Origin: a bacterium
GTDB lineage: Bacteria; Patescibacteriota; Microgenomatia; JAMCZE01
DNA length: 64,000 bases
Direction of reading: 5' to 3'
Assembly: GCA_021836035.1 (NCBI GenBank)
Contig: JAKBJL010000003.1
Span: forward strand, 132,135-196,134
In this document: one piece after another, positions 23,028-49,245 of the stretch
Layout of the letters: each line of letters starts with the position of its first letter
Position numbering within the stretch: position 1 is the first letter of the stretch
Notes under the pieces: model-generated
Databases searched by the model: none
The model's input: the letters and a program-made list of their open reading frames with translations, nothing else
What the model was told of the DNA's origin: nothing
Made by a program: the position numbers and the translations under genes

Positions 23028-23346
23028 CTCTTCTATTTTTTCAACGGATCGGAAAATTAATCAAGTATGAGGGAGAAAAGAAGGAAGTAGGGAAGGTTCG
23101 TGGAGCAAATCTTCCGGAGGACTGCGCGAAAAGATATGCCCGTTATCTATGGGGATATGTCTTTTGGCAGCCACAGCCAGATGGGTGTGGAGCGACCTTC
23201 CCGCTTTCCGGCAAGGGGATCCAAAACATAATTGATTCTTGGGAATTTGGGTGAATTGGCTAGGCGGGCCGCTAGCGGAAGTATTTTCCCGGCCCCGGAC
23301 GGTTATAGATAACTGAGAACCGGCGGCTGTCGATGGTAAAGAAGAG
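23028..23346 (+). ncRNA. rnpB: candidate RNase P RNA (reduced bacterial type)
   Basis: Fills the ~500-nt gap with no credible ORF. CR-IV-like GGGUGAAUUGG (23248) then a GCUAGGCGG/CCGCUAGC hairpin; CR-V-like GAGAACCGGCGGCU (23315). CR-I-like GGAAGGUUCGUGGAGC…UCCGGAGGAC near the 5-prime end. P1: 5-prime CUCUUCU (23028-34) pairs with AGAAGAG (23340-46). Confidence 0.45.
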
Positions 23347-23525
23347 CTTCGCAGATAAAACTTTAGGTCATTATTCGGCATGACTACACAATAGAGGGAA
23401 AATATTTATTTGCCACTAGAATCGGGTAAGGATACAGCAAGAAATAAACCAAGTCAGACTTGGCTCAGTCGAAGGATCTTGTCCCGAGCAGTTAGACTTC
23501 GCTCACCGTAAGCATTGTTGAAGGG

Positions 23526-23555
23526 TTGACAAAATTAATACCCAATTCCTATCTT
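23526..23555 (+). promoter_or_regulatory. candidate sigma70-type promoter (TTGACA-N18-TATCTT) for the 23586 ORF
   Basis: TTGACA at 23526-31 and TATCTT at 23550-55. Confidence 0.25.
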
Positions 23556-23585
23556 CCTAAAATCTTCGGAATCTACTATAGCTGC

Positions 23586-23912
23586 ATGGCTCAGACGAAA
23601 GTAACTACCAACCACGGAGAAATTATCCGCTGGGTTCAGAAACATAAGGGCAAACCGCAAATAGCCGTCGATCCCCAAGCCGGGTCGGATTTGCCGATAA
23701 TTAGGATTGATTTTCCCGGAGCGGGAGTTGATAACTTTTTGGGTTCTGACGAGATTACCAGAAATCTTTCCTGGGAAGAGTTTTTCCGTTTTTTTGATGA
23801 AGAACGCCTGGCTTTTATATATGAAGACCGCGACAAACTGGCAGATCCCAGTTTGGCTTATCGTTTTATCAAACGCGGTTTGGTAGATGCTGAAAGTGGA
23901 AGCCAGCTCTAG
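23586..23912 (+). CDS. hypothetical protein
   Basis: Protein-like composition (…DEITRNLSWEEFFRFFDEERLAFIYEDRDKLADPS…); probable start MAQTK at 23586 (the ORF track starts at 23526). Confidence 0.4.
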   Translation: MAQTKVTTNHGEIIRWVQKHKGKPQIAVDPQAGSDLPIIRIDFPGAGVDNFLGSDEITRNLSWEEFFRFFDEERLAFIYEDRDKLADPSLAYRFIKRGLVDAESGSQL

Positions 23913-23969
23913 TGGTTCATACAAGTTACATAAAAATTTCCCACACAAATTTAAACCAAAAAGTATAAA

Positions 23970-24311
23970 TTGACCGATATGAATATTGTCGTCTTTTTCC
24001 AGGAGTTGATCACAAACCCGACCAATCTCGTGAGTTGGATTCTCTTCGGACTGATTGTCGGGACACTTGTGCACCTTATTGATCCCGGGGATGTCCGCGG
24101 GGGCATAATCGGAACGGTTATTTTAGGGGTGTTCGGAGCTTTACTTGGGGGTCTTGCTACCGCCTGGCTTTTGGGAATAGCTTTGGTGGGCTTTAGTCTC
24201 CAGGGATTAATTGTCGCCGTTATCGGCGCCTTAATTTTAGCTTTAATTTCCCGCCTGGTATTTCGCAGGACGGGGGTCTTTACCACCACGACCAGAACCG
24301 AGCAAAGATGA
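23970..24311 (+). CDS. GlsB/YeaQ/YmgE-family (transglycosylase-associated) small membrane protein
   Basis: Gly-rich TM helices …GGIIGTVILGVFGALLGGLATAWLLG…VAVIGALILALISRLV. Confidence 0.7.
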   Translation: MTDMNIVVFFQELITNPTNLVSWILFGLIVGTLVHLIDPGDVRGGIIGTVILGVFGALLGGLATAWLLGIALVGFSLQGLIVAVIGALILALISRLVFRRTGVFTTTTRTEQR

Positions 24312-24330
24312 TCTATAACAAATGCTTCTT

Positions 24331-24735
24331 TTAATGCGCGCGCATGGTGGACGGCGGAGTAAAAAGCGGGTAGTGATCAAGGGTGCGAAGAAAAATACGG
24401 GGGAAATGGTGTTTAAAAGGATAGGAATGCGGGCAATGCTCTATCGTGAAGCTTTCCTGATGGGGTCTAATTAAATCTGCCGTCAGGGTCAAGTCAAAAA
24501 CTTCAGCATTTAAATGGCGGTAAGCAAATTTTTTCCACTCCCGCGGGCCGATTTTAACCGCATCGCCCTGATCGGTAGACTGGCAGCAGAGATTGATGTG
24601 ACAGCGGTTGGGACTTTGACCGCGCTCCTGTAGATTGTGGTGGAGATGAACCAAAATTTCAGAGATGTTACGGCAAGAAGCGCATTCCGGAAAGTTTTGC
24701 GGGCGGGAGATTTGCTGCTTTTCTTTTGTTGCCAT
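24331..24735 (-). CDS. hypothetical Cys/His-rich protein
   Basis: 134 aa with CASC…HLHH…CHINLCC; no family assigned. Confidence 0.3.
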   Translation of the reverse strand: MATKEKQQISRPQNFPECASCRNISEILVHLHHNLQERGQSPNRCHINLCCQSTDQGDAVKIGPREWKKFAYRHLNAEVFDLTLTADLIRPHQESFTIEHCPHSYPFKHHFPRIFLRTLDHYPLFTPPSTMRAH

Positions 24736-24794
24736 TTAAGAGGGCAGCGGCCTTATCTTAGCATAATTACCGTGGGCGTCAAGAGAATTGGGGT

Positions 24795-25610
24795 TTGTTT
24801 TTATTATTCAGGCGGGATAAAATGCCCTCAATGAAAATTGGCGATTGTGAAACACCGTCCGGGGCGGGAGCGCTGGAAATGACTGCCTTAGAAAAAAGGC
24901 AGATCCTTTATCCCGAGAGTCGGGCAATGTTACGAACGAAAATTACCCAAGTCCAGGGAAAAGTGGAACAACGTTGGGGAGAGCATATACCCGGCGATAC
25001 CAAGAGGAAAAACCTTACATTAGCGGAGCGGGTTTATGTCCTGGGTGCTAAAGATTACGATGCAGAATTGGGAGGGTTTGACCACAAGGTTGATTCGGCA
25101 AATCCTTTAGCGATGTTTACGGAATGCGGGGCATTTTATTATGCGCGTATAGTAGGTCAGGATTTAGGTTGGGGAGAGGTCGTGGCGGGAAACGGACGGG
25201 AGGAAAAGTTAGCGGCATTTTTCGCCGCACAATTAGCGGTTTTTGGCAGCCGGGTGCATGATTTTTACTTTAACGGGAAAGACAGAATTACGGAGTCTGC
25301 TGATATTTTAAAACAGCAAAATACCGCGGAAATCCGGGAATCGTTTTACCCGCCAGTAGGCACCGGCCAGCAATACCAAATTCCCATTACTTCCGGGTAC
25401 CAATCCCTAGGCTGCAGCTTAACGCAATTGGGAATAATTATTTTACGTTATTCTAGCGATCTGGAATCTTTTGCTAGCATCGAGAGACTGGAGGAATGGC
25501 GGAATTTATTTGGTAGAAATGAGCAAAAAATGCGCCGCGTCGTGGCCGGAACTATTTTAGATTGCACCCTTGCCCACGAGATAGTCCATCTCTACGGACC
25601 GCAGATTTAA
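24795..25610 (+). CDS. hypothetical protein
   Basis: 271-aa ORF with coding-like composition; no motif recognised. Confidence 0.5.
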   Translation: MFLLFRRDKMPSMKIGDCETPSGAGALEMTALEKRQILYPESRAMLRTKITQVQGKVEQRWGEHIPGDTKRKNLTLAERVYVLGAKDYDAELGGFDHKVDSANPLAMFTECGAFYYARIVGQDLGWGEVVAGNGREEKLAAFFAAQLAVFGSRVHDFYFNGKDRITESADILKQQNTAEIRESFYPPVGTGQQYQIPITSGYQSLGCSLTQLGIIILRYSSDLESFASIERLEEWRNLFGRNEQKMRRVVAGTILDCTLAHEIVHLYGPQI

Positions 25611-25941
25611 TCCCGTTGTTTTGATACCCATGTTGGGAAACGGCTGTTAAATTGATTTTTTGATAAGCCGGGTTTATAGGTGTCGGTACGCAGATAAATA
25701 TAATCGCTGCAGAGCCTGCTATTTATTTCAATGGCTCGAAGTCATAAGCGGGATTGTGAATAAGAATCGGGCAGCGGGGTTTAAATACGTATTCGACCGC
25801 CTTGCCGACAAACTCGTAACCGACAATTCCGACTTTAGGAATTGGGCAAAGAGGCAAATATAATGAAAGAGAAAGAAAGTAATGCAAGTCCAATTGGTAA
25901 ATAAACCCATGAGACAATAAAACCGTTTATCCAGGCGGTAG

Positions 25942-25950
25942 TGGTATAAT
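25942..25950 (+). promoter_or_regulatory. extended -10 element TGGTATAAT 10 nt upstream of the 25960 start (near-leaderless)
   Basis: TGgTATAAT at 25942-25950. Confidence 0.3.
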
Positions 25951-25959
25951 TTATGTGGT

Positions 25960-26313
25960 ATGGACGATTCAGTCGTCGAAAAAGATCCACAAAAACCTAG
26001 CGGCTTTAATGTTCCGCCGGACTCGACGCTAACTTTCCAGGAGGCTATAAAAAGAGGGGAATATGATCCAAAATTTCTGGAAGGGTTCGCCATTTGGCAC
26101 ACTTTGAGCCGCGATGTTCAATTTGAATATATTCGCGAAGCCTTAAAAAATCGTGAGAAGCAATATGTTGTCCAGTTTGCAGAAATCAATAATGTTCTGG
26201 ATTTTAGTAAGAAACCGCAGTTACAACAAGTCCTTAACAATATTCAACAAAAAATTCAAAAACTTCGGGAAGAAAAGGAAAGATTGTATATTGAATACAC
26301 TAAACCGGAATAA
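25960..26313 (+). CDS. hypothetical protein
   Basis: 117 aa, charged and helical (…LREEKERLYIEYTKPE). Confidence 0.45.
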   Translation: MDDSVVEKDPQKPSGFNVPPDSTLTFQEAIKRGEYDPKFLEGFAIWHTLSRDVQFEYIREALKNREKQYVVQFAEINNVLDFSKKPQLQQVLNNIQQKIQKLREEKERLYIEYTKPE

Positions 26314-26340
26314 ATATAATGATGAAATTATCGCCCCGAT

Positions 26341-27301
26341 TTAAATTCCCCGTTTTTCTCTTGTAATGACATCCAGCAAATGGTTAGGTTCGTATAATGA
26401 TCTTGCGTTGTAAAGGCATTTATTTACCAATGGTTTAGACATGTGACATTCAAGTTGAGAAATTACCCTGGTAATACCTTCCAGCTGCTTAACGTATGCT
26501 CCTGGCGACCCAAACGCTTCCTGGTATTTACCATAGAGATCACCTGATAGAGTATGTTTGATGTTGTCAAGCTTATCGTAGATTGTGTTTGTGCTGGTTT
26601 CTTCGCGGGTAATTTTCCCTGATCCGTCCCTCTGGACTGTTTTGGTGGTATAAATATTTGGTACGTAAGTGTCACGGTAATAGGCAGCAAATTCTTCGAG
26701 AACCGCTTCTTTTGGACCACGGTTGTCTCGATTGGGGTCAAGAGTATGGCCGACTTCATGGAGCATGTCCGCATCCAGATTACCCGTAAATATCAAAGTC
26801 AAATCTTTTGTCAGGGGATCTTTATCCAACACGTCACCACTTATCGTAACCCCATTTGATCCGCTGTGGCCGGCCAGTTTCTTATAGAGTTTTTTGGTAA
26901 TCAGCTAAGTCCATACTAAAATAAGGTCGGGCGAAAGAATAGCCATATTGATCGGCCAAAGCCTTTACATCCGGTGAGTTAGACACAACCTTTAATCCAT
27001 CCAGGCCATCTTGGGCTATCTCTTCACCTGGCTGTTCACGTAGATTATTGAATAATTTTACCGGCCATGGTTTAAGAGGGTCTTCTTTTTGCATATTTTC
27101 CAGCTCTTGTTGAAAACGATGATAATGCTCCTCTTTTTCCTGATTAATAACCAAGGGTCCCCTAAAGCGGTCGACGACGGGATCAGAGATCTTTAGTTCG
27201 CTATTTGTTGGCTTTAGGGCATGGGAGAGATCTAGTGATCCGTCAGGGCTTACTTTTGCCCCGATAATTAATCCCAAATCAGCATTCCCGTCTGCTGGCA
27301 T
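26341..27301 (-). pseudogene. HExxH zinc-metallopeptidase-like gene split into two frames (26882..27301 then 26341..26832)
   Basis: Downstream part carries DADMLHEVGHTLDP; the two ORFs are 49 nt apart, same strand, offset by one frame. Confidence 0.35.
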
Positions 27302-27423
27302 ATGTTAACCAAAACACCTTTTATCCTGGGCCGGAGCCATCTGAGCCTACAGACGTCGTCTGGCGAAGCTGAATAAAAACCTATCTCAAGGCTCTATCCC
27401 AAATTTGTGCCTGATTTCTTGAA

Positions 27424-27460
27424 GCTCTGGATGGAAGGTACCGAACCTTTTACGCACAAA
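27424..27460 (+). repeat. recombinase-like 3-prime-end remnant repeat R1 (degenerate: GC--TCTGGATGGAAGGTACCGAACCTTTTACGCACAAA)
   Basis: Aligns to R2-R5. Confidence 0.6.
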
Positions 27461-28147
27461 TTATTCCAGGCAACTATTTTTTGTTGGTCCCCGGCGAAAA
27501 CGATCCAGGAAAATTGTCTGTGAAATATCAATTGAATCTCGATAAAGACCCATTTTAAAATAAACTAAATTTTGTGTGTAATCAAAACCAAGTGGACCAT
27601 GATAACTGGCTAATATTTCGTTGTTGATCCAGACATCAACAAACCCGTCTAATGATTCGTTGAGTTGGTAATTAACCAAGACATCATGCCAAATACCGCG
27701 TGGATCTTTTGTCCAAAAGTATTTTTTCATTAATTGCTTCCTGCCCATTATGCAAAATTGCAACTGTCCGTTAATATAGCGAAATGAAAGAAAAGGTGAT
27801 TGTTTTTCTTCCTGGTAAAATTGTTTCCATTGTGCGAAAAGTAAACGATTATCAACGATAGGGAAATTGGTGGGGAAGTAAAACGAAAAAGCATACCAAA
27901 TGCCAGAATTTAAAGGTACTAAAATATCTTGTTTTTCCGAAAATTCTGCCCTTTCGGTGGGTTTATTATCTCGACCAATATCTGGTTTATCTCCGGTGCG
28001 AAGAGTTATTTTTAAGCTAGACTTTCCGTTCCGGGCTTGTTCTTCTGAAATTTCCCAAGAATGTTGTTCAACCCTTTTGAGCCACCAAATATTCCCATCT
28101 ATCTTACCTTCAAAATCGTCTTTTAATATTAAATCTTGGGCCGCCAC
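27461..28147 (-). CDS. ConA-like lectin/glucanase-fold protein, possibly a polysaccharide lyase (PF14099-like)
   Basis: 228 aa, W/F/Y-rich beta-sandwich-like sequence (…GIWYAFSFYFPTNFP…LLFAQWKQ…). Confidence 0.3.
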   Translation of the reverse strand: MAAQDLILKDDFEGKIDGNIWWLKRVEQHSWEISEEQARNGKSSLKITLRTGDKPDIGRDNKPTERAEFSEKQDILVPLNSGIWYAFSFYFPTNFPIVDNRLLFAQWKQFYQEEKQSPFLSFRYINGQLQFCIMGRKQLMKKYFWTKDPRGIWHDVLVNYQLNESLDGFVDVWINNEILASYHGPLGFDYTQNLVYFKMGLYRDSIDISQTIFLDRFRRGPTKNSCLE

Positions 28148-28230
28148 AAATTTATTGTAACAGAAGGTTCTTCCATTCAGCCATGAGATACTTTGGTATA
28201 GAAGCTAGGTAAGAATTTCTTCAGAAGAGT

Positions 28231-28295
28231 TTAGTGAACTATGTTTGCAACTACTACCGGGAAAATTATTCCAAGTACTAATGGTTACTATTGCG
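28231..28295 (+). repeat. second-type remnant repeat (≈80 % identical to 42997..43062, the 3-prime end of ORF 42709..43068)
   Basis: …TTTAGTGAACTATGTTTGCAACTACTACCGGGAAAATTATTCCAAGTACTAATGGTTACT… versus …CTTGGTGAACTACGTCAGCAACTTCTACCGGGAAAACTGTTCCAGTTACCAATGGTTACT…; the local copy carries a stop. Confidence 0.55.
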
Positions 28296-28362
28296 GGAGA
28301 ATAGTTAAAAAGCTGTCAAAATCATAAACTATGTTAGCTATGTTAGAATTGATTAAGATTCA

Positions 28363-28987
28363 ATGGCCAAGCTAGTTTCAACTAATCCCTCCAAAAATTT
28401 CGAAAAAATTGGTGAAGTCGATATTTCTTCTGAAAATGAGATTGCCGGAAAGGTTAAGAAGGCAAGGGAAGTCCAGAAGAGCTGGGGAAGTTTATCCGTA
28501 AAAGAACGGGTAATATACCTGCAAAAGGTATATGACCTTTTTGAAAAGCACCGGGAGGAACTTGGAAAGCTTGTTGGTGACGAAATTGGGATGCCATTGT
28601 CTGTGAGGGATTCTATGGAAATCGGAGCCGGTCAAGATTACTTCAAATGGTATTTGGAGAATGCGGAAAAATCTCTGTCACCGGAAATAACTCATGAAGA
28701 CGAAACCTCGCAAAGTAAGGTTTACTATGAACCTACTGGTGTCGCTGCTGTAATATCCCCCTGGAATTTTCCTTGGATTGGGAGGCTATCTTTTTACAGA
28801 GGATAAAATGTCAGCCAGGAGAGAAGCCTCAAAGATAAAGACGGGGATGATCGGGATTAATAACACAACTTACCTTCATCCGGCTAATCCATGGGGAGGA
28901 TATAAGAAATCAGGGCTGGGAAGGGGGAATGGAAAGTTTGGTCTTCGAGGGGTATCACAAATAAAGGTTGTTACTCTTGAAAAATAA
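28363..28987 (+). pseudogene. aldehyde dehydrogenase remnant: N-terminal ~147 aa joined out of frame to C-terminal ~60 aa; catalytic core (~270 codons) deleted
   Basis: N-fragment ends with the ALDH motif VYYEPTGVAAVISPWNFPW; C-fragment has GINNTTYLHPANPWGGYKKSGLGRGNG (the PFGG-K-SG-GRE region); the Cys/Glu catalytic region is absent. Confidence 0.75.
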
Positions 28988-29133
28988 TAAGCAAGGTGGG
29001 AGGAAAACACCTTCGGTTAGCTCCGCCAAGGCGAAGTCGAACAAACGCGAGTTGATAAATCAGCTCGCTTCGTTCGTCCTGTGAACTCGCTTGAAACAAA
29101 ATATCCCGAGACAAATGCCCGGGAATTTTGTTT

Positions 29134-29174
29134 GCAGCCCTGGATGGAAGACATTCGAACCTTTTACGCACAAA
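29134..29174 (+). repeat. recombinase-like 3-prime-end remnant repeat R2 (GCAGCCCTGGATGGAAGACATTCGAACCTTTTACGCACAAA)
   Basis: Encodes …REFCLQPWMEDIRTFYAQN… in an otherwise unannotated open frame (29021..29209). Confidence 0.65.
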
Positions 29175-29183
29175 ATGCTCTTT

Positions 29184-30356
29184 TTATTTGGAAAGGCTGG
29201 GTTGGTTAAGAAGGTAATACATTACACTGTAAACTTGGGTTATTCCTTCTGACCGCCAAGTGTTTAGTTTGCTTTTTGTCGTAGTATTTGTTCTTCGTTC
29301 TGCCAGAAAAACTAGTGTTTTTCCTATAAAAGTCTCAGCTTTTACCGGAACTCTCAAACCATAATAATTCTCAGTTTTTCCTTGGCCGCTAAGAAAATCA
29401 CCCACTCTTGCGTTGTTCATAGCAAAAATATTTCCAATTCTAGAATAGACTCGAGGGCCAAGACCCATAAAATCTACACCGTTGTTCATAAGTTTTCTTT
29501 GTGGTGCGTCCTTTTCTCTGCTAAAACCATAGGTACCTGTTTGGTTATATCCACATGTAACTAAATAATTTCTGGCCATGTCGTACATTTGATGCCGTTC
29601 ATGTAATCCCGGCCGACGCATCACTCCTTGGTTTATGAGATTCCTGCTTCTGGCGCCATAAGCATTGACATATTGAAACAAGGTAATTTCAGGCGGGTTT
29701 ACTTCTTCGACAACTCTAATTAAAGTATTTTCTAAACTTTGTTGTGTTTGATTCGGGGTACCAAACATGAGATCAATGTTGTAGGGTACACCGATTTGAT
29801 TTAAATTTTGAAGAATCTGAACTTCCTGTTGTGCCGAGGTAATATTCCGATCAAGACCCTGCCTTTCTTGATCTGATAAATTTTGAACTCCCAGGCTTAA
29901 TCTGCTTACCCCTAAGGCTAAAAGTCCCAATACATGATTTTCGGTAGCGTTTTTGGGGTGTAGTTCGAAAGTTATTCGGGCACCGTTGGTTTCCACATTT
30001 TGGCGAACATTAGCTAGAAGTTGATCGGCTTGACCTAGGGTTAAAAGTCCGGATGTCCCGCCTCCAAAGTAAACCGAAGTTATTTTTCCCCGGCCGACTT
30101 GTGGTAGGACAGTATCAAGGTGTTTTGAAAACGGTCCGATGTACCCTTCAATTTTTTCGGGACTGGCGGTTGTTCGGTGGAAGGCACAAAAAGAACAAAC
30201 TTGTTCACAAAACGGAATGTGGACATATAAAGCCAATCCTTTGCCAGCAGAGCGTCCAACCTCTCTTTGTTGGTTCATTTCTGCCAATCTAATTGGTTTT
30301 AGCCTGCCTTTAATAGTTTCACCTGCTAGCATGTGTAGCGCGTATTCACAATCCAT
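29184..30356 (-). CDS. radical SAM protein, HemW/HemN family (oxygen-independent coproporphyrinogen-III-oxidase-like)
   Basis: CEQVCSFCAF (CxxxCxxC), VYFGGGTSG (the GGGTP motif of HemN), 390 aa. Confidence 0.75.
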   Translation of the reverse strand: MDCEYALHMLAGETIKGRLKPIRLAEMNQQREVGRSAGKGLALYVHIPFCEQVCSFCAFHRTTASPEKIEGYIGPFSKHLDTVLPQVGRGKITSVYFGGGTSGLLTLGQADQLLANVRQNVETNGARITFELHPKNATENHVLGLLALGVSRLSLGVQNLSDQERQGLDRNITSAQQEVQILQNLNQIGVPYNIDLMFGTPNQTQQSLENTLIRVVEEVNPPEITLFQYVNAYGARSRNLINQGVMRRPGLHERHQMYDMARNYLVTCGYNQTGTYGFSREKDAPQRKLMNNGVDFMGLGPRVYSRIGNIFAMNNARVGDFLSGQGKTENYYGLRVPVKAETFIGKTLVFLAERRTNTTTKSKLNTWRSEGITQVYSVMYYLLNQPSLSK

Positions 30357-31948: not shown

Positions 31949-31981
31949 ATAAATATCCTATAATATGAATTATATATCAAT

Positions 31982-34743: not shown

Positions 34744-34746
34744 AAT

Positions 34747-35951: not shown

Positions 35952-35963
35952 TATACTTATAGC

Positions 35964-37622: not shown

Positions 37623-38100
37623 AACAACTTTTTATTAACCTCTTCACTTGAATAATAGGTTGTTGTTTCGCTTAGCTCTCCGATTGAGACTTAAGACAAA
37701 AGAGAAACGGAGCGTCTTGTATTGGAAGGAGATATGCAATCCCGGATGCGTGAACATTTGGCAGGTAGTGGACAACAATATGTCCGTGAGGAACTGGGGA
37801 GGATCTTCCCTGAACTCGATCCTACTTCTGACTAAGCAGAATGGAGCTCCGAACAAAAAGAGGCAATGGAATGGGCACTTGATCATGCCCAAGCGATGCT
37901 GGTTAGCGCGATTCTGAAAAGAACAGAAGGGTACAAAGCCGGTCTGGAAGCACAATTCAAAGGAAACAACGAACTCGCAGGAATGAAAGACCTAGGCTTA
38001 AACCAGAGACGAGACTTGCTTGCAGTCGATAATTTAACCCCCCTTCTTAAAACTTTTCAACCAAACCAATCCAAGTAAGCAGATTATTCAAGGAGTTCAC

Positions 38101-38868: not shown

Positions 38869-38870
38869 TT

Positions 38871-40647: not shown

Positions 40648-40693
40648 AGAATCAGTTTATCATCCGTCATCTTTCTGGTCTATAATTTAAGCT

Positions 40694-41257
40694 ATGTCGA
40701 GTAATTTTGAAAACCATAGCACGATTATCCATAAGCGCCAAATTTACGGGCAGGTGTTAGAATACACGAACATGCAAAACGGATCGTTCGTTGTTCTTTT
40801 TAAAGACAGTGCCCGCCAAGAAGTATTTTTAGTTTTTCGTTCTGATTATCCTATATGGGGTATTACTGGTGGGGGGATTGAAAATGGAGAAACTTCAGAA
40901 CAAGCGGCGGTGAGGGAAGCCTTTGAGGAAACCGGGTTCGAGGTTAAAATTCTTAGAAAAGTCGGGGTTTATGAAAACGGGCTTGCCAAAACACATCTCT
41001 TTGAGGGCAGAGTTATTAAAGGTGACTTCAAGCCAGAGTTCCCGGGATGTAGAGGGGCCTGGTTTAAAGTTGATAATTTACCGAAGGATATGACGCATCG
41101 GGCTAAAGAAAAAGTCCAAGACGTCTCTAGTTGTTTTGATAAAACGCCTTTTGTCAAAAAAATACAAGGAGAATTGATTAGCGATAACTTAATTTTGGTA
41201 CTACGGCACCCATGTTATTTATTGAAATACCTAACGAATCAAATCGTTACCCACTAA
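40694..41257 (+). CDS. NUDIX hydrolase
   Basis: Nudix box GGGIENGETSEQAAVREAFEETGF (G-x5-E-x7-REUxEExGU). Confidence 0.75.
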   Translation: MSSNFENHSTIIHKRQIYGQVLEYTNMQNGSFVVLFKDSARQEVFLVFRSDYPIWGITGGGIENGETSEQAAVREAFEETGFEVKILRKVGVYENGLAKTHLFEGRVIKGDFKPEFPGCRGAWFKVDNLPKDMTHRAKEKVQDVSSCFDKTPFVKKIQGELISDNLILVLRHPCYLLKYLTNQIVTH

Positions 41258-41409
41258 TACATCAAAATCTTTGCCCACATGGCGGACACAAACAGCCCCG
41301 TACTTATTCAGACAGAGAGAGTAGGTTTTCTACTAAAATATCCTGATAAGTTTGATTCCAGTTGGGCGTTGATTTATTTTGATATAGAAACTAGGCACGA
41401 ATTTTGTTG

Positions 41410-41447
41410 GCAGCCCTGGATGGAACACATTCGAACTTTTTACGATC
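41410..41447 (+). repeat. recombinase-like 3-prime-end remnant repeat R4 (inside small ORF 41279..41473, …RHEFCWQPWMEHIRTFYDQ…)
   Basis: GCAGCCCTGGATGGAACACATTCGAACTTTTTACGATCA. Confidence 0.65.
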
Positions 41448-41456
41448 AGGTGAAGA

Positions 41457-42299
41457 TTATTTCCTTACAATAACTCTTTCATTTATGGGGGGTGTTACTT
41501 CCTCTGATGGGTCGGGCAGTTCAAAAGTCTCGGGATTATAATCGTCGTCCTGTTTTGGTATCTTTCCGAAGATAGCATATTTTTCCCCATTATAATCGAT
41601 TGTCTCAGACAATCTTTGCCAATAATCGTGAGTCTGGTTCTCTCCGATAGGATCTTCATCTATATTAGAAAGGACATAAAATCTTCCACTTTTTTTATTA
41701 ATCCAATGAGCCTCAAAATATACGGCATTTTCCGTCTCTTTTAAATCACCGGGAAGATTTAACTGGGTAACAGGTACAAACCTCTCATTGCCACCACCGA
41801 CATCAGAGCCTTCATAGAGATGGATTACTAAAGAATCCAAACTTCCTTGAAGTTTATCTGCATTTTCGAGGGGGATCAGATGCAAAACTAAGACGTAGTG
41901 TGCTTCGAAGAATTGATCTTCGGCTTCTTGAGCCAAGGATTCTTCTCGTAACTCCTTCGGTGTATCCTTATGGGTGGGATTAAGTAGTTTAAACATGGGG
42001 GAACGGGCTATTGGTATGTATATTTGCAGGTAATAGCCTGGACTTCTTAATCTACCGATTGTAGCTTCTGTGTCGCCAAATGAAATTTCTTTTGATTGCG
42101 GATCGTGGAAATGAACCGTGCTGTTCAAATCCCCAGAGCTATAATGTCTGGCCAATTCTGCTTGTACACTACTGTAAGAAAGCTCCCTATATGTCTGAGG
42201 TGATTGAGAAAGACTCAAGAAGATAGGAGTCAACCCTACCAGATCATCAGGCGGGGGATATTCAGGAATATGTGGTCGAGGGAATTTTTCTTTGGGCAT
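41457..42299 (-). CDS. hypothetical protein
   Basis: 280-aa ORF; no motif recognised. Confidence 0.5.
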   Translation of the reverse strand: MPKEKFPRPHIPEYPPPDDLVGLTPIFLSLSQSPQTYRELSYSSVQAELARHYSSGDLNSTVHFHDPQSKEISFGDTEATIGRLRSPGYYLQIYIPIARSPMFKLLNPTHKDTPKELREESLAQEAEDQFFEAHYVLVLHLIPLENADKLQGSLDSLVIHLYEGSDVGGGNERFVPVTQLNLPGDLKETENAVYFEAHWINKKSGRFYVLSNIDEDPIGENQTHDYWQRLSETIDYNGEKYAIFGKIPKQDDDYNPETFELPDPSEEVTPPINERVIVRK

Positions 42300-42347
42300 T
42301 TAGGAACATTATAGTGTTTCTGGTTCCTTTAATCAACCTATAGTATC

Positions 42348-42388
42348 TGCAGCCCTGGATAGAAAGTATTCGAACCTACTGCGCTCAA
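42348..42388 (+). repeat. recombinase-like 3-prime-end remnant repeat R5
   Basis: GCAGCCCTGGATAGAAAGTATTCGAACCTACTGCGCTCAAA. Confidence 0.6.
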
Positions 42389-42427
42389 ATTCAGGTATTT
42401 GCTACTATTGTTTGACCTAAAATTATT

Positions 42428-42670
42428 TTATGTGGTTAAAAAGCGAACAACTTCTCGAACAACCTCTGCCTTTGGTCTGAGAATAAAGTCTCCATGCCCT
42501 CCGGGGTAGAAAAGCGACTTCCCATCGCTGAATCTGCGACGTAGCAATTCTGCCCGTCTTCTAAACATTTTTGTTTCATCTTTTGAATTAACTATTAAAA
42601 TGTCTTTACCTTCCAAAATATCAAGTTCGTTATACCAATCAGTATGAAAAAGATTGTAAAAGCCCTCCAT
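42428..42670 (-). pseudogene. possible C-terminal fragment of an alpha/beta hydrolase
   Basis: 80 aa ending …LFYPGGHGDFILRPKAEVVREVVRFL (His-containing C-terminal segment); no N-terminal nucleophile elbow. Confidence 0.25.
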
Positions 42671-42708
42671 TATTAGATGCGTGGCTAAACGGAAAGGTTA
42701 AGGAGGAT

Positions 42709-43068
42709 TTGTATAATACTAAATCGGTCGAAATCGAGAGAGAGAAAGATGAAGTTATCGCCGAGATAGCAAAACACAAAACTACGGATCGTGCGTATCA
42801 AGCGGATATTGGGGGATTTTTAACTTTTTGTAACGAAGCTCCAACTTTATTCAAAAGTTCGAGACCTGCTCTAAAACGGGAGCTTTTGAGATTTGTCGTT
42901 TCGAACCTTATTTTGAAAGACGGAAAGCTCGATATTACGCTCCGTTTGCCATTCAACATAGTCGCAAAGTATGCCAAAAATGAGAATTGGCAGGGCTTGG
43001 TGAACTACGTCAGCAACTTCTACCGGGAAAACTGTTCCAGTTACCAATGGTTACTTACTCCCAATTAA
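42709..43068 (+). pseudogene. C-terminal remnant of a large-serine-recombinase-like gene (…ALKRELLRFVVSNLILKDGKLDITLRLPF…NWQGLVNYVSNFYREN…)
   Basis: 119 aa with no catalytic N-terminus; the tail aligns with 35532..35951 and 2063..2632; 3-prime end ≈80 % identical to 28231..28295. Confidence 0.4.
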
Positions 43069-43542
43069 TTCCTTAAATTTTGCCGCTCTTTGTTCTCTTG
43101 TCAAGGACAAAGCCCAATCCCAAGCGTCTTTATACAACGGCTGCCTTTCTGACTCAACTTTTACCTGCTTTTTCGCAAAGTCTTCACCCCATAAATCAAT
43201 CCAGACGTCATAAAGGATAAGATCTAATAGCTTATGGATTTCGTCCTCTTTACCGGGTATTAACCGGTGGAATAATTCATGGACTAAGGTAGCCTTTTTC
43301 GTCTCAATTGGGTAACTGGCTCTAAGACTAAGGGGATGGGATCGGCTTACGCCTTCAATAACAACGGCATTAATAGTATTTTCTGTAAATTTTAATCCGG
43401 TTAATCTTTCGATTGTTTCAATTATTCTTGCCGATTCTTTGATCCAAATCTCCTGATATTCCTCTGCAGATTTAATTAATTCTAAATCATCATGGTCTGG
43501 GTAAAAATTTATTTTCATAATTTCACTTTTAGTTCTTCCCAC
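43051..43542 (-). CDS. putative zinc-dependent peptidase (HExxH; SprT/DUF45-like)
   Basis: ATLVHELFHRL. Confidence 0.4.
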   Translation of the reverse strand: MGRTKSEIMKINFYPDHDDLELIKSAEEYQEIWIKESARIIETIERLTGLKFTENTINAVVIEGVSRSHPLSLRASYPIETKKATLVHELFHRLIPGKEDEIHKLLDLILYDVWIDLWGEDFAKKQVKVESERQPLYKDAWDWALSLTREQRAAKFKELIGSK

Positions 43543-44114
43543 GTAATAACATCAGCCCAATTGGGGATTGGAGTTTCTAAAACCTTATCCCGGTCATCAA
43601 TTTTTCCGGAGGCGTGATCTACGGCTTCCTTAATTACCAAAGGATAGTAACCCCGCCAATTTAATTCCTGTATAGTTGAAAGGACGCAACAATCGATCGT
43701 AAGTCCGAAGAGCACAGGAATAACTTCTTCAGGTGAACCAATGTTTTTACCAAGCCATTCACCGAATTTTTTCGGATCGGGATAGGGGAGACCGGGTTCT
43801 TGATTGGGATCGCCGATTCCGTCTCTAATCCATACCGGCGAGTTCATGCACTTAACCCATTGAGATGAGACAAGCTCTTTAGGAACTATTGATTCATAGC
43901 CCCATTCGCCTGGGTGAGCCCCATCACCCCGGTCACCTGGTCTGGGTTGGCGATAATCGGAAACAATTTCGCAGATTTTTATTCTTTTTTCTTCGAGAAT
44001 TGGGAAAACATTTTCTTTAAGAAATTTTACTGATGGTTTAGGGGAATAAAACTTGCCGCCAACAGACGCAAATTCGTTTTGGATATCAACAGCGATAAAT
44101 CTATATTTTTCCAT
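43515..44114 (-). CDS. isochorismatase-family cysteine hydrolase
   Basis: FIAVDIQNEF (catalytic Asp), GLTIDCCVLSTIQEL…YPLVIKEAVD (catalytic Cys region). Confidence 0.65.
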   Translation of the reverse strand: MEKYRFIAVDIQNEFASVGGKFYSPKPSVKFLKENVFPILEEKRIKICEIVSDYRQPRPGDRGDGAHPGEWGYESIVPKELVSSQWVKCMNSPVWIRDGIGDPNQEPGLPYPDPKKFGEWLGKNIGSPEEVIPVLFGLTIDCCVLSTIQELNWRGYYPLVIKEAVDHASGKIDDRDKVLETPIPNWADVITWEELKVKL

Positions 44115-44155
44115 GGTGAAACCGCTAAGACGTATGATAAGAGTATAATAAAACT

Positions 44156-44746
44156 ATGTCCATACCCGAAAACGTTGAGCGGAAGCTCTCGCCAGAGGAA
44201 GAAGCCAGAAAAGAAAAGTGGCTAAAAGACCTGTCGACTTTTATTGTCGAAGCCAATACCCATACTTGGGCAGCCGAAGGGGCAGAAGTTAAAGTTCCAC
44301 AAAGACCAAAATATAAAGAATTGCAATGGCCGCTGCCTGATCCAAATACCGGGAAGATCGAAGGAGGGTGGGAATTAAGAGATAGCTATACAGGATATTT
44401 CCGAGCTCCCTGGATGACGACAATTTACTATAAAGGGGAACCAGCCTGGACTATGGCTTACGGGAGAACCGGAATGATGGAAGATAAGTACGATATAACC
44501 AAAGCTACCTTTGATTTTCTTAAAAAAGCCCTAATGCTTGTGACAACAGAAATGCCGTATCGGGGATTGCCTTTGGAGGAGGGAAACCGTCGTTATGAAA
44601 TTCAAGCGAATGGTAATCTGGAAGACTTTGACGGCCAGGAGAAAACTTTTGAGGACAACGAATTAACTTTTACCCAGTATTTCTTCGGAGGAATTGTCAT
44701 CGACAAGGACGCGAAACGTCAGCCGGTTTATCCCTGGAATAGATGA
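44156..44746 (+). CDS. hypothetical protein
   Basis: 196-aa ORF. Confidence 0.5.
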   Translation: MSIPENVERKLSPEEEARKEKWLKDLSTFIVEANTHTWAAEGAEVKVPQRPKYKELQWPLPDPNTGKIEGGWELRDSYTGYFRAPWMTTIYYKGEPAWTMAYGRTGMMEDKYDITKATFDFLKKALMLVTTEMPYRGLPLEEGNRRYEIQANGNLEDFDGQEKTFEDNELTFTQYFFGGIVIDKDAKRQPVYPWNR

Positions 44747-45985: not shown

Positions 45986-45993
45986 AGATAAGC

Positions 45994-46586
45994 ATGGAGC
46001 CTATAGAGATTAAAGAAATATCCAACGACAGAATAGGCGCTGCCAAGATGCATTTTCTGGACCGCGTAACAGAGGCCGGACCAAAATTCGGTTATTTGCT
46101 AATCCATTTAAAGGCTTTAGAAAAATGGGCAGACAAGGAAAGTTCAAAGCGCCCGGAGTTAAATAAGGAAGTGTTTTTCTTGTCTATTTGGTTACACGAT
46201 ATTGGGCAGGTTATTGGTGATAAAACTGATCACGCCGTTAATTCCGAAACAGAAGTAAGAAGGTATCTTCCAGAAATTGGGGTGGGTTCGGAAACCGTTG
46301 AGGAAGTGGCTCACTGTGTTCGGTCCCACCGGTGCAAAGATGTCCAGCCGGAAACTCTGAAGCTAAAGTCTTAGCCGCATGTGATTCTGCCAGCCACATG
46401 ATAGATATTGTTTATGCCGATAAGGCTAGCGAGGGGAGGGCAGGGGAAGCATTAGGAAAATTGGAAAGGGATCTCCGGGACACGGGAATATTTCCGGAAA
46501 TTCAAGAAGAGGTTAAACCATACTATCTAGCGTGGAAAAATTTGTTGGAGTTTTTAAGTCGAAACAGCAGTAATAACTTCGTTTAA
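45994..46586 (+). pseudogene. HD-domain phosphohydrolase interrupted by a frameshift near 46330-46375
   Basis: WLHDIGQ (H-D) in frame 1 (45994..46374); LAACDSASHMID (the downstream D of the HD motif) in another frame from 46332. Confidence 0.5.
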
Positions 46587-48203
46587 TCTTTGCTGCTTAA
46601 TAGTTTTAACTTGTTCACCTTTTTCTTCAATTTCTGCGTTTCGGTGGATTCGGCGTCCTAAGGGTTCAACAAATTCGTCCTTATAAAGAATCTCTGAATC
46701 CAGATAGAGTTTAACGTGGTCCATGAATGCCTTGCTTCCCAAATATTCAGCCACCTTTTGTCTCGCTTGCTGTTGAACTTTAGGATCTATGTCTGCCGCT
46801 TTCAGCTGGACAGCTTTTCTTAAAAGGGAAAAATAATAAACGCTAACCGGAATTTCAAAACCCCCGCCATCGTTATATATGGCTTCGGGTTTGGTTAATT
46901 CCGGCTGGGTTTTATAAAGATAGTCAAAGTAGGCAACCGAAGGGAAAAAGTTTTGGACCAAACAGTTTTCCAGAAAACCTACATAGCGACCATAATTTTC
47001 GTGTTGATAAAGCAATCTTACATATGGCTCAATTTCCGGATCTAAAGCCAGTTCACAATGAAAAACCGGGTGGCTAATTTTAAGCTGGTCGATCATCATA
47101 TACTCCTGCTCGTTTGTATGGGAAAGAATATTTTTTATAGCTTGCCGCATTTCTTCCAGGGTAAATTTCTCCTCAATGGCTTGCCCTGATGATTTAAAAT
47201 CGAAGGGGTCAACACCAAAGTGAAAGCCAAGATCGGCAGCAGTATTTCTAAAATCTTTCCCGACCTCCATTTGATCGGATAAATTTCTTAAATCATCAGC
47301 CGCAATTATGGTGTCCTTGGTCGGTGAAACTATTTTTGGTAAAAACTCTGAAGATAGGGGAGCAAAGTTTTCAAAGATAAATCTGTCCATCGCGGGCAAA
47401 TTTCTGTCTATTGCCGCCAATGAGGAGTTGTCGTGGGTACCGGCAATGGCGCGAATATTAGCATGCAAAATCTCGGTTCGTTTCTCTTGAGGAACATTAA
47501 ACCAGGTCTGTAGGGCTTTGAGATATTCATTATTATCTGTCAATTCCATGCATTCTTTAACAGTGGAGGTTGCTAGTTTATCTTGTGCTTCGGTTTTGGA
47601 GATTCTTCTCATTAAAATATTTAGACCTCTATGCGTATCAAAAGTTGCGTTTTCCGCAGGAGCCGGTTTCCACTCGTTCTTTTCGCTACTAAGTATTTCA
47701 AAGTCGTTTCCATATATCTGTTGGACATCTTCAAGGTCTCTGTACATCATGCTGCCAGAATTGTCTTTATAAGCGGGGTGTTCTTTGGAAAAGCCAAAAT
47801 ATAAGAGGTATCCGCCTTGTTTTACAATTCTTGCCTGTTCTTCTTCTGCTTTGATTTGGCCCTCTTTGGTTAGCATATGGGAACAACCGGAGTCTATGGC
47901 AACATCATAGCTGGAATCGTCCAGGGGCAATTTTGTTGCATTTGCCTCAATGAAACTTGTACTTAATTTATTTTTTTGGGCATTTGCTCTAGCAACATCA
48001 AGTTCTTCTTTGTTTATATTGATACCGATAACTTTAGCTCCTTGAGATTCCAGATAATTAGAATTACGACCAAATCCGCATCCGATATCAACAACAGTTT
48101 GGCCTGGTTTTATCAAACCTTTTTCAAGGCTAGTCTTAATAAATGGTGTTGGGCTATCTGCTTTCCAGGCGATGTTTTCGGAAACTTCTCCTACTTCGCT
48201 CAT
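46554..48203 (-). CDS. class I SAM-dependent methyltransferase domain fused to a ~370-aa C-terminal domain of unknown function
   Basis: VVDIGCGFGRNSNYL (motif I), KVIGININ, YDVAIDSG; the ORF track extends to 48335, but a start at MSEVGE (48203) avoids overlap. Confidence 0.55.
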   Translation of the reverse strand: MSEVGEVSENIAWKADSPTPFIKTSLEKGLIKPGQTVVDIGCGFGRNSNYLESQGAKVIGININKEELDVARANAQKNKLSTSFIEANATKLPLDDSSYDVAIDSGCSHMLTKEGQIKAEEEQARIVKQGGYLLYFGFSKEHPAYKDNSGSMMYRDLEDVQQIYGNDFEILSSEKNEWKPAPAENATFDTHRGLNILMRRISKTEAQDKLATSTVKECMELTDNNEYLKALQTWFNVPQEKRTEILHANIRAIAGTHDNSSLAAIDRNLPAMDRFIFENFAPLSSEFLPKIVSPTKDTIIAADDLRNLSDQMEVGKDFRNTAADLGFHFGVDPFDFKSSGQAIEEKFTLEEMRQAIKNILSHTNEQEYMMIDQLKISHPVFHCELALDPEIEPYVRLLYQHENYGRYVGFLENCLVQNFFPSVAYFDYLYKTQPELTKPEAIYNDGGGFEIPVSVYYFSLLRKAVQLKAADIDPKVQQQARQKVAEYLGSKAFMDHVKLYLDSEILYKDEFVEPLGRRIHRNAEIEEKGEQVKTIKQQRLNEVITAVST

Positions 48204-48205
48204 AA

Positions 48206-48940
48206 TTATATTGTACCTATCCGCTCGGCTTTTGATAAGTCTTTCATAGAACCCCGGAATAAGGCTAAGTTGTAGTACTTGGTAAATTGAGTAAGTTTTT
48301 GGATTTGTTCTTCCTGCGGTTCTGTAGGAAACCATTTATTGGTGTTAATTGTTTTTGAGATTTCCGATTCCTGGGTCCGGACTAATATCCAGAAATCTTC
48401 AGTATCAACGCAAGCCATTAAGGGGGGATTTTCTGGCCGGGGATGATAGACAGAACCAAAAGCGTCTGAATAGCTTGGAGGTCTTGGGGAAACATGGGAA
48501 TGGATGGAAAGACCAGCCCGGTTTTTGGCGTTAAGTTTCGAACTGTCAAAATACGCAGAATCCGGTAAGCCTTGTAACGGTAGTGTCACGCCCAAGTTAC
48601 CTGCTTCATCGGAAGTGACAAGAACGCCCCACTCCGTATTAATCATTTTTCCAAGCTGTTCTTGCTCGTCAAGATAACCAAGAATTTGTTGGTAGTACGG
48701 ACTGGCTTTATCCACCTTGCCTTCGAGATTTTCCCGGACCTGCTGGGGGGAAAGCGGCTTTTCCCCAGTTAACTTAAGGATATCTCTAACCTGGTTTTGG
48801 ACAATAATTGGAATTACAAACTCTGATGGTAATTCAGACAGGCTGGGTTTACCTTCAAATGCGGCTTTGGTTATCCAAACACCTAGATCATTGTTCTTAG
48901 GAGTAAGTTCTCTCGATTCCTGTGCCCCCGGTTCAGCCAT
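48206..48940 (-). CDS. hypothetical protein
   Basis: 244-aa ORF. Confidence 0.45.
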   Translation of the reverse strand: MAEPGAQESRELTPKNNDLGVWITKAAFEGKPSLSELPSEFVIPIIVQNQVRDILKLTGEKPLSPQQVRENLEGKVDKASPYYQQILGYLDEQEQLGKMINTEWGVLVTSDEAGNLGVTLPLQGLPDSAYFDSSKLNAKNRAGLSIHSHVSPRPPSYSDAFGSVYHPRPENPPLMACVDTEDFWILVRTQESEISKTINTNKWFPTEPQEEQIQKLTQFTKYYNLALFRGSMKDLSKAERIGTI

Positions 48941-49124
48941 ATATTCCTATTTTACCAGAGAAGAACTGTCAGAGAGTTTTTAACCAGGAGACAACCTTGG
49001 TGAACGAGGTTTTTCCGGAAGCGATTTGGGCTCCGATAACTGCCAACAGGCCGCCGATAATAAAGGGCACAGTTATTCTTTCACCAAGAAGAAGGACTGC
49101 CAGAATGATCGTGGCTACGGGTTG

Positions 49125-49195
49125 CAGGGATGCCAGGATTCGAACCTGGAAAAGCAGTTTTGGAGACTGCTGTGATACCATTTCACCACATCCCT
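49125..49195 (-). tRNA. tRNA-Trp (anticodon CCA)
   Basis: Cloverleaf folded by hand: acceptor AGGGATG/CATCCCT, D-stem GTGA/TCAC, anticodon stem GCAGT/ACTGC, loop CTCCAAA, T-arm CCAGG-TTCGAAT-CCTGG, discriminator G; CCA not encoded. Confidence 0.8.
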
Positions 49196-49245
49196 AACCA
49201 ACGTATTTTATCATTTTTAACGTTTTTTGGATTACCACCTCGGGA

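Follow-up and report, generated by a model that had tools for sequence, protein, structure and literature searches.

In Dehalococcoides, several tandem low-GC islands lie downstream of the transfer-messenger RNA (tmRNA) gene ssrA, and a CcrB-like serine recombinase of ~540 amino acids is encoded at the island edge beside the attachment (att) site (McMurdie et al., 2011, PMC3146451). Many of these islands have no integration module and have been read as fixed or cis-mobilizable, the whole having formed by accretion (PMC3146451). The same article quotes "evolution by deletion and tandem accretion" for ICESt1 and ICESt3 of Streptococcus thermophilus (Pavlovic et al., 2004, via PMC3146451). Composites also occur among staphylococcal cassette chromosome (SCC) elements, a passage of one preprint describing a 40-kb composite of three of them (bioRxiv 10.1101/336396). 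Here we describe a decayed island in a bacterium of the Patescibacteriota, within a 64-kb stretch of contig JAKBJL010000003.1 (the whole stretch is referred to as the window, and positions are counted from its first letter). The region is real, decayed, horizontally derived and anchored on tRNA-Trp. Between ~25.7 and 49.12 kb it is probably a pile-up of about eight integrative elements, now degraded, that large serine recombinases (LSRs) brought one after another to the tRNA-Trp 3′ end. This kind of island is already known; the lineage, the recombinase family and an attP arm that mimics a tRNA are new details.

The interval contains seven plus-strand repeat units, J0 to J6, between 27419 and 43045, five of one type (D1) and two of another (D3). 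A repeat search found four D1 copies (at 29133, 35890, 41409 and 42348) and two D3 copies (at 28226 and 42992), and a profile search added the seventh, J0 (27419-27465), a decayed D1 unit with a 3-nt loss in its core. The other D1 units are J2 (29120-29187), J3 (35877-35946), J4 (41396-41463) and J5 (42335-42402), and the D3 units are J1 (28210-28283) and J6 (42976-43045). Leave-one-out nhmmer searches recovered each of J2 to J5 with E-values of 1e-9 to 3e-14 (3e-14 for J2, 1.2e-11 for J4 and 1e-9 for J5). J0, which was never included in a model, was detected at 1e-6 to 8e-9, when the best value in 20 shuffled windows was 0.07; J1 scored 7.9e-21 with a model of J1 and J6. The D1 and D3 profiles did not detect one another. 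The unit cores are 74-83% conserved over 53 nt, far above the surrounding sequence, and the right half is conserved in all five D1 units, where it carries the T-loop motif TTCGAACC. On the left, at least three arm types occur: J0, J2 and J4 share a GAATTT...-type arm, and both D3 arms are alike. The units and tRNA-Trp follow one another at 0.6-6.8 kb in the same orientation. The D1 core had no match in IMG/VR viral contigs. Symmetry of the P and P′ arms went no further than a short AGCC(C)NGGAT-like inverted repeat, which was noted by eye and was not relied upon.

The units could in principle be short elements of another kind (terminators, regulatory motifs or members of some small repeat family) within an ordinary lineage-specific variable region where recombinase remnants are incidental. 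Five of the seven have no recombinase homology outside the unit, and four overlap or adjoin the stop of the convergent gene in the following cassette, where terminators sit. However, six of the seven do not fold beyond shuffled controls (z-scores of -0.5 to +0.5), and these controls rule out a hairpin, attC or terminator nature. The units also lie on one strand and are confined to the low-GC interval, the unit sequence follows an intact recombinase gene (that of P0013) in the related locus L088, and 16 full-length LSRs have, as their native tail, the peptide that the units encode. We regard this explanation as very improbable and as already largely refuted.

Two of the units terminate open frames with recognizable recombinase homology (P0007, P0013, P0044 and P0129 denote homologous proteins, and L001 to L109 related loci fetched for context). 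The first frame, 35532-35951 on the plus strand (139 codons), ends in J3. In tblastn, 114 full-length LSRs match 35532-35981 over their residues 354-613, and the best match to 35532-35951 is P0013, over residues 464-576 of 579 with 73% identity (E 6.6e-48). The second, a 119-aa open frame at 42709-43068 on the plus strand, ends in J6; here 15 LSRs match 42697-42999 over residues 434-537, the best being P0044 (E 4.8e-5). In both frames the similarity is confined to the final ~110-260 residues of the full-length proteins, and the two stubs are 34% identical to each other. They are gene remnants, not functional genes. The catalytic, recombinase and zinc-ribbon regions have no match anywhere in the window, nor do residues 1-350 of any of ~115 LSRs, and no integrase or transposase domain, tyrosine recombinase included, was found in any scanned ORF. 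An earlier note on this DNA, made from the sequence alone, had listed seven recombinase-like 3′ remnants and no intact integrase. The second statement holds, since only LSR C-terminal pieces are present; the first is right as to seven units, with coding homology beyond the unit at J3 and J6 only. The note had also pointed to tRNA 3′ ends as a classic integration site. The site is upheld, but the tyrosine integrase usually implied is not, as the recombinase is an LSR.

At the remaining junctions the coding evidence is faint. To the left of J0, J1, J2, J4 and J5 there is at most weak peptide similarity (E 0.18-10). The stubs of J1 and J2 contain in-frame stops, J4 ends a 64-aa open frame (41279-41473), and J5 is without a recombinase stub on its left, having the form X-core-P′. 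The J4 ORF, the left part of which shows no recombinase homology, had no homologue among 5.8 billion proteins, so no parent recombinase was found for it.

The family to which the remnants belong comprises at least 2,836 homologues at E<=1e-20 (with the rejoined LSR of L001 as query), typically of 560-610 aa and with the domains PF00239, PF07508 and PF13408; named members are mostly from Patescibacteria. The literature searched contained no description of a link between this family and tRNAs, and the related loci display one repeatedly. In L002 and L003 an LSR remnant overlaps tRNA-Trp. In L087 the intact LSR P0007 runs into tRNA-Trp at the end of a block of ~10 kb, in which there are a methyltransferase/restriction gene, a helix-turn-helix (HTH) protein, DUF5659, a primase, a helicase-like protein, three small genes and the LSR. 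L088 has the same module (DUF5659, primase, helicase-like protein, LSR) with reverse-transcriptase cargo. Intact elements of the relatives measure 6-10 kb, with cargo at one end and, in L087 and L088, the closest two relatives with intact elements, the replication/integration module and the LSR at the other. The left end of the intact L087 element was not found by profile or regular expression. The closest LSR with context, in L001 (3658-5950), is split by an IS200/IS605-type Y1 transposase gene. After its stop codon only the 5′ half of a tRNA-Trp is recognizable, and ARAGORN detects no tRNA-Trp there.

The C-terminal tails of the family fall into classes. We sorted the tails of 115 full-length LSRs after a conserved W-x-Q-N-P: 42 read into an antisense tRNA (LPRVDSNHEP, QGWRESNPQ), 30 stop at that point, and 16 continue as LRAMNKVRTWI or GLVDDVRTYF, which matches the D1 (QPWMEDIRTFY) and D3 (QGLVNYVSNFY) peptides of the window. 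We read the antisense-tRNA tail as a putative integrated junction (P-core-B′) and the LRAMNKVRTWI-type tail as that of an LSR reading across P-core-P′. The LSR frame crosses its own attachment site in L087 (11650-11772) and in L088 (11690-11740). It follows from such a crossing that integration swaps the last 10-30 residues (...LRAMNKVRTWI...) for a translation of the antisense tRNA (...LPRVDSNHEP...).

The right half of the D1 units resembles the end of tRNA-Trp with a few bases added. On the plus strand tRNA-Trp reads TGCAG, 11 nt and TTCGAACC, in which TTCGAA is the T-loop, and J2 to J5 read TGCAG, 16 nt and TTCGAAC; when aligned with the units by MAFFT, three tRNA-Trp sequences receive a gap of 5 columns. 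Most junctions, like the tRNA flank, keep the TG before CAG. In L088 the intact P0013 gene is followed by TGCAG, 15 nt and TTCGAACC. Other tRNAs are treated in a similar manner. L053 carries a 5.9-kb LSR element between tRNA-Pro and tRNA-Arg; in L006 and L008 these tRNAs are separated by 14 nt, so that the loci make up an occupied/empty pair. The tRNA-Pro arm reads GTCG, 11 nt and ATTGAACC, and the far arm GTCG, 16 nt and TGCGAACC. As this element sits exactly between the two tRNAs, the ndk neighborhood is a recombinase target in a relative. At tRNA-Asn in L109, two different LSRs follow one another, an arrangement like that of the window but with the recombinases intact. The junction between the two elements repeats the acceptor sequence CTCCCCCT, and by direct count the T-loop motif stands 4 nt further out (10 vs 6 nt). 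In a characterized serine integrase, the motif bound by the zinc-ribbon domain (ZD) occurs in both attP and attB and lies 5 bp nearer the center in attB (Rutherford et al., 2013, PMC3783163). From this agreement we infer that the D1 right half is a P′ arm made for a tRNA target, with a crossover at the extreme 3′ end of tRNA-Trp.

We propose that each element was brought in by an LSR that used the tRNA-Trp 3′ end as the B′ half of its attachment site. The LSR gene would read outward across its own attP and, after integration, would be convergent with the tRNA and run into it, and the P′ arm would copy the TGCAG end and the T-loop motif of the tRNA with 5 extra bases between them. Newer elements would have inserted beside the tRNA and displaced older ones outward, so that each of J0 to J6 would consist of the gene stub and P arm of an older LSR, a core, and the P′ arm of a younger element. 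Later deletions would have removed all replication/integration modules and the catalytic regions of the recombinases, leaving cargo, 3′ stubs of 0-139 codons and broken genes. Because the module adjoins the recombinase end in L087 and L088, one deletion per element would leave cargo plus a 3′ stub, and units overlapping the stops of convergent genes may limit how far such deletions extend. A repeat search of the window found no duplicated cargo gene, the junctions fall into two families and their left arms into at least three types, all of which speaks for elements that arrived separately. Damage is greatest in the junctions far from the tRNA (core loss in J0, stub stops at J1 and J2) and J3, J4 and J6 still end open frames, which fits an order with the newest element next to the tRNA.

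The junction at tRNA-Trp itself is of another form. A C-terminal fragment of an EamA-family drug/metabolite transporter (DMT) gene (48969-~49123 on the minus strand, matching positions 92-132 of 135 in Pfam EamA with E 5e-7 and 30.5 bits, where the cut-off is 28.2) ends exactly at the tRNA 3′ end and is 34% identical to the window's own EamA gene. In the scheme of stacked elements, this junction would have lost its P arm, the EamA fragment being joined at the core by a deletion, or it may be an excision scar formed through an X-core-P′ structure like J5.

Composition and gene order set the limits of the foreign DNA. On the left, as the earlier note had stated, the conserved run stops at ndk (22446-23027, plus strand; Pfam NDK E 1.3e-39), which lies outside the array: DNA and protein similarity to 80 related loci ends at the ndk stop codon, and ndk is the last gene with homologues in the sampled relatives. 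The nearest ndk relatives are metagenome-assembled genomes (MAGs), many of them labeled Woesebacteria, Roizmanbacteria, Saccharibacteria or "Patescibacteria group". On the right, tRNA-Trp(CCA) is on the minus strand at 49124/49125-49195 with its 3′ end facing the interval, as had been claimed; the foreign block stops at 49123/49124, and 49125 is the discriminator base. The only other tRNA gene in the window is tRNA-Leu(CAA), at 50160-50245 on the plus strand. GC content is 0.40-0.42 between ~26 and 44 kb and 0.45-0.48 in the flanks, and GC content at third codon positions (GC3) is 0.368 +/- 0.038 in 22 array genes against 0.480 +/- 0.043 in 31 flank genes (Mann-Whitney p=8e-9). The comparison of composition and codon usage that had been suggested thus gave a divided answer, with clear differences in GC and GC3 but no significant difference in synonymous-codon likelihood between array and flank genes (p=0.21).

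The single ~26-kb island starting at 23028 that had been proposed is foreign DNA by its GC3, but neither its left edge nor its unity stands. The stretch from 23028 to 25700 is core-like: it comprises ~550 nt of non-coding DNA and three small genes called in the public record (23586-23912; 23979-24311, Transgly_assoc-like but below the Pfam cut-off; and 24822-25610), with a GC content of 0.45-0.50 and, for the genes at 23586-25610, a GC3 of 0.44-0.55. A 400-nt GC profile drops near 25.6-25.8 kb to 0.36-0.41, and island-like GC3 begins with the gene at 25960. The shift places the start of foreign composition at ~25.7 kb, ~2.7 kb to the right of 23028, and what follows is more probably a tandem stack than one island. 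The suggestion of an rnpB gene after ndk was not borne out: there was no Rfam match at the gathering threshold in the window, at E<=1 in 22800-26500 or at E<=10 in 23030-23590, and the fold of 23045-23530 on both strands (z-scores of -0.9 and -0.7) was no better than that of shuffled sequences. The ~550 nt of DNA after ndk (23028-23585) are relatively GC-rich and have no convincing ORF. Between two of the called genes, 24331-24735 on the minus strand is a 134-aa Cys-rich open frame with no family match and no public gene call.

In three relatives (L093, L095 and L098) the genes for DnaB, tRNA-Leu(CAA), a NIF3-like protein, elongation factor P (EF-P) and a major facilitator superfamily (MFS) transporter are contiguous. 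In the window, ~30 kb, comprising the segment from arginyl-tRNA synthetase (ArgRS) to ndk, the array and tRNA-Trp, lies between DnaB and tRNA-Leu (18801-20135 vs 50160-52026). To judge from this gene order, a rearrangement larger than the island occurred at the DnaB/tRNA-Leu region. Relative to NIF3, the tRNA-Leu gene lies on the other strand in the three relatives and on the same one in the window. The synteny comparison called for earlier shows a break against the relatives, and an empty tRNA-Trp site was not among them. The 80 loci compared through ndk yielded none, adjacency of ArgRS and ndk being the sole shared feature; in the nearer ndk relatives (L006, L007, L008 and L053) tRNA-Pro(CGG) and tRNA-Arg(CCT) follow ndk, and neither is there in the window. 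The comparison through NIF3 gave the break described above, and the relatives concerned have their tRNA-Trp at another place. The relatives found share at most 86% of ndk residues and ~50% of NIF3 residues and are rearranged at this locus. No displaced copy of the tRNA-Trp 3′ end, in the style of tyrosine integrases, was found with up to 3 mismatches. On the composition, the tRNA-seeking recombinase family and the synteny break, the earlier description of horizontally acquired, decayed DNA integrated at a tRNA 3′ end is supported.

Several observations weigh against a stack of LSR elements inserted one after another. Five of the seven units (J0, J1, J2, J4 and J5) are assigned to a recombinase by the unit alone. 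The tRNA-proximal junction has no recombinase stub, the EamA fragment occupying the place where a P arm is expected; at J5 too, unrelated DNA replaces the P arm, so arm loss does occur. The B-core-P′ junction at the left end was not found, and a TGCAG at 25707, at the compositional edge, has no profile support. Neither an empty tRNA-Trp site nor a strain without one of the cassettes was present among the relatives and assemblies found. A passage in PMC3783163 reports that serine integrases do not recombine attP with attR or attL, and if attP x attR is barred, stacking would depend on a resident P arm that is heterologous, already deleted or somehow tolerated. Finally, the intact LSR of L108 (10001-12000) has an attP-type tail (TGC, 18 nt and TTCGAACC) and no tRNA on that side; it is directly followed by the chromosomal-looking genes HIT, acyltransferase, ParB, L27, L21 and FtsW. 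L108, and possibly L109, indicate that an attP-type tail is not always due to a neighboring element.

The barred reaction would not be needed if the junctions were the intact attP sites of single elements, and the array had formed by homologous (Campbell-type) recombination of circular elements into a resident LSR gene or by integration of multimers. Left-arm and right-arm types do co-vary, in both D3 units and in J0, J2 and J4, whose GAATTT...-type arms go with D1. The J3 and J6 stubs, however, are too divergent to offer much homology, no cargo is duplicated as a multimer would give, and the tandem LSRs of L109, with a tRNA-mimicking junction between them, are as successive insertion predicts. 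We therefore think this route unlikely.

Another explanation is that the array is a live platform, in which recombinase-less cassettes are cis-mobilizable, their D1/D3 junctions still work as sites, and an LSR encoded elsewhere or brought by an incoming element would excise, reshuffle or co-transfer them, in the manner of a cis-mobilizable element (CIME), a pseudo-SCC or, loosely, an integron. The strong conservation of the cores would suit this, but recent arrival of related elements alone predicts it as well. J3 and J6 still end uninterrupted frames, whereas J0 and J1 are visibly decayed and there is no LSR gene in the 64-kb window. The ends of assembled contigs are suggestive in part: one Logan contig from this organism breaks off within the J2 core (29148), where no 31-mer is repeated elsewhere in the window, and an NCBI MAG contig ends 70 nt past J5, yet others end at sites with no such relation (24275, 44224). 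Neither a circular joint nor junctions in a different combination were observed. The ssrA islands without integration modules have been interpreted in a like manner (PMC3146451). We consider a live platform possible but unlikely. If it existed, it would be an integron-like, tRNA-anchored gene-capture system driven by a serine recombinase in bacteria with tiny genomes, in which any cassette with one such unit could be shuffled, excised or re-inserted in trans, and a simple "+5 bp" rule would convert the end of a tRNA to an attP arm.

Decay extends to the cargo, and the lesions bear on whether the assembly can be trusted. Of the four broken genes reported earlier, three are clear. The aldehyde dehydrogenase (ALDH) gene has an N-terminal piece at 28363-28806 (Pfam Aldedh positions 11-140) and a C-terminal piece at 28778-28987 (positions 398-461 of 461) in a different frame, with ~257 profile positions deleted between them. 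The HD hydrolase at 45994-46586 is frameshifted at ~46330-46375: when its frames are joined at ...PETL/EAKVL..., the HD profile match grows from positions 11-90 (25.4 bits) to 11-113 of 116 (32.4 bits). The HExxH peptidase gene at 26341-27301 is split. Its homologues in an exhaustive HMMER search have ~318 aa. The ORF at 26882-27301 (139 aa) aligns with residues 1-137 of P0129 (54% identity, E 7e-53), and that at 26341-26832 (163 aa), in another frame, aligns with the second half of the homologues (P0129 residues 157-318; 57%, E 3e-67). The fourth, an alpha/beta-hydrolase fragment at 42428-42670, is plausible on its sequence: its sole support is a C-terminal-like motif, ILIVNSKDE...GGHGDF, and the ORF has no Pfam or NCBIfam match. 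The EamA fragment beside tRNA-Trp is a fifth decayed gene, beyond those four. For annotation, this means that at least four cargo genes are pseudogenes and that "hypothetical proteins" of 123-139 aa and 119 aa at this locus should be read as recombinase stubs.

We compared the window with three independent assemblies, NCBI GCA_021788435.1 and the Logan assemblies of SRR13170411 and SRR13170412, and found 100% identity over 20227-29148, 31457-44224 and 49150-62026. The first of these blocks spans the left edge of the array, and the last begins inside tRNA-Trp. As the ALDH, peptidase and alpha/beta-hydrolase lesions are identical in the independent assemblies, they are not errors of one assembly, which settles an earlier query for these three genes; the HD region lies outside the coverage of those assemblies. 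A mis-joined block of foreign low-GC DNA with frameshifts from sequencing errors might be suspected in a MAG such as this, particularly where several independent contigs break within the interval. But assemblies from two runs and the NCBI MAG agree across the left edge, through 31457-44224 and rightward from inside tRNA-Trp, and they reproduce the ALDH and HExxH lesions. Further, the protein cluster of the 35532-35951 remnant is listed on a contig of up to 404,924 bases. An artifact of assembly or binning is thus highly improbable. The other assemblies represent the same population and give no presence/absence evidence for accessory status. Exact-protein look-ups for strain variation likewise found every place identical to the window, and they returned no record for a 593-aa methyltransferase of the array or for P0001.

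From left to right, the order is core-like DNA, C0, J0, C1, J1, C2, J2, C3, J3, C4, J4, C5, J5, C6, J6, C7 and tRNA-Trp, where C0 to C7 are cargo cassettes of 0.6-6.8 kb. C0 (25700-27418; GC3 0.36-0.40) holds a 117-aa gene (25960-26313, plus strand) and the split HExxH gene (minus). C1 is a polysaccharide lyase gene (27461-28147, minus; Pfam Polysacc_lyase E 8.9e-28), the stop codon of which is within J0, and C2 is the ALDH pseudogene (28363-28987, plus). C3 (29184-35583; GC3 0.31-0.35) encodes a radical SAM protein (minus), an endonuclease/exonuclease/phosphatase-family protein (plus), a weakly sulfotransferase-like protein (minus) and proteins of 222, 698 and 278 aa with function unassigned (plus). 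C4 (35964-41257) has five genes, for a 552-aa protein with twin-arginine (TAT) signal motifs (plus), a 255-aa protein (minus), an MFS transporter (minus), a P-loop kinase like zeta toxin/AAA_33 (minus) and a NUDIX hydrolase (plus). In the 552-aa protein (35964-37622) signal motifs stand at residues 19-56 and once more at 208-227, a pattern that points to a wrongly called start or else to the fusion or duplication of two units.

C5 (41457-42299, minus) is a single 280-aa gene without assigned function, and C6 (42428-42670, minus) is the 80-aa ORF with the alpha/beta-hydrolase-like motif. C7 (43051-48940) has eight listed genes: those for a 163-aa protein (minus), an isochorismatase-like protein (minus, below the Pfam cut-off), a DUF5680 protein (plus), proteins of 164 aa (plus) and 262 aa (minus), the frameshifted HD hydrolase (plus), the 593-aa S-adenosylmethionine (SAM) methyltransferase (minus) and a 244-aa protein (minus). 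Scans of the cargo for defense systems and phage families gave a generic methyltransferase match only.

Outside the array, short intergenic repeat families (GGGGCTCCCCGC...TTGCCACCC...TAAAA...GTAAT) occur in the flanks, at 3812-3854, 5367-5409 and 51407-51449, at 7246-7302 and 20227-20283, and at 14995-15023 and 20286-20314. Their position upstream of housekeeping genes makes them look promoter-like. Logan contigs of two different runs both begin exactly at 20227, at one such repeat.

As we interpret it, the locus is one where a reduced Patescibacteria genome gains and then erodes accessory genes at one tRNA hotspot, a process as in the Dehalococcoides ssrA islands and SCC arrays with a different serine-recombinase family. 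It also offers a natural illustration, over several targets, of how serine integrases tell attP from attB, the offset being +5 nt at tRNA-Trp and tRNA-Pro and ~4 at tRNA-Asn. This could help the prediction of att sites for the 2,836 homologues found and is relevant to recombinase engineering.

The ssrA islands are the closest precedent, being likewise a tandem low-GC stack at a small, essential, tRNA-like RNA gene in a small genome. In contrast to them, the target here is a true tRNA, and the crossover appears to fall at its 3′ end rather than inside the T-loop. The boundaries are tRNA-like arms with 5 extra bases, not a 20-bp direct repeat of the RNA gene. The family has a single LSR without a CcrA/DsiA-like partner and a DUF5659-primase module, and every recombinase in the window has been reduced to a 3′ stub.

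SCC and SCCmec elements (CcrAB/CcrC at rlmH/orfX) are likewise cassettes moved by serine recombinases that gather in a row where a single conserved gene ends (3′), and their arrays likewise include recombinase-less units (pseudo-SCC). They differ in recombinase subfamily, in target, which is a protein-coding gene, in host phylum and in cargo, and no two-recombinase system was seen here. ICESt1/ICESt3-type elements have tyrosine integrases and identical core repeats, whereas here a serine recombinase is involved and the arms of the junctions are more than plain direct repeats. In the account quoted at the outset, accretion among integrative and conjugative elements (ICEs), integrative and mobilizable elements (IMEs) and CIMEs likewise brings newer elements to a single integration site beside deletion derivatives whose att sites have survived.

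Integron arrays resemble the locus in being a one-directional row of mostly promoter-poor cargo units with short recombination sites. Here, however, there is no IntI tyrosine recombinase and there are no hairpin-forming attC palindromes, and the cassettes hold up to seven genes on both strands and are anchored on a tRNA. An integron is ruled out, with no tyrosine recombinase domain in the scanned ORFs and no excess folding in the units. In its att sites, the closest parallel is the LI integrase of Listeria phage A118 type (PMC3783163), in which the motif shift between attP and attB is 5 bp, as between tRNA-Trp and D1 and in L053, and approximately so in L109. Published serine-integrase attB sites, however, lie in ordinary genes; here the putative attB half is the acceptor and T-arm of a tRNA, which the attP arm appears to imitate.

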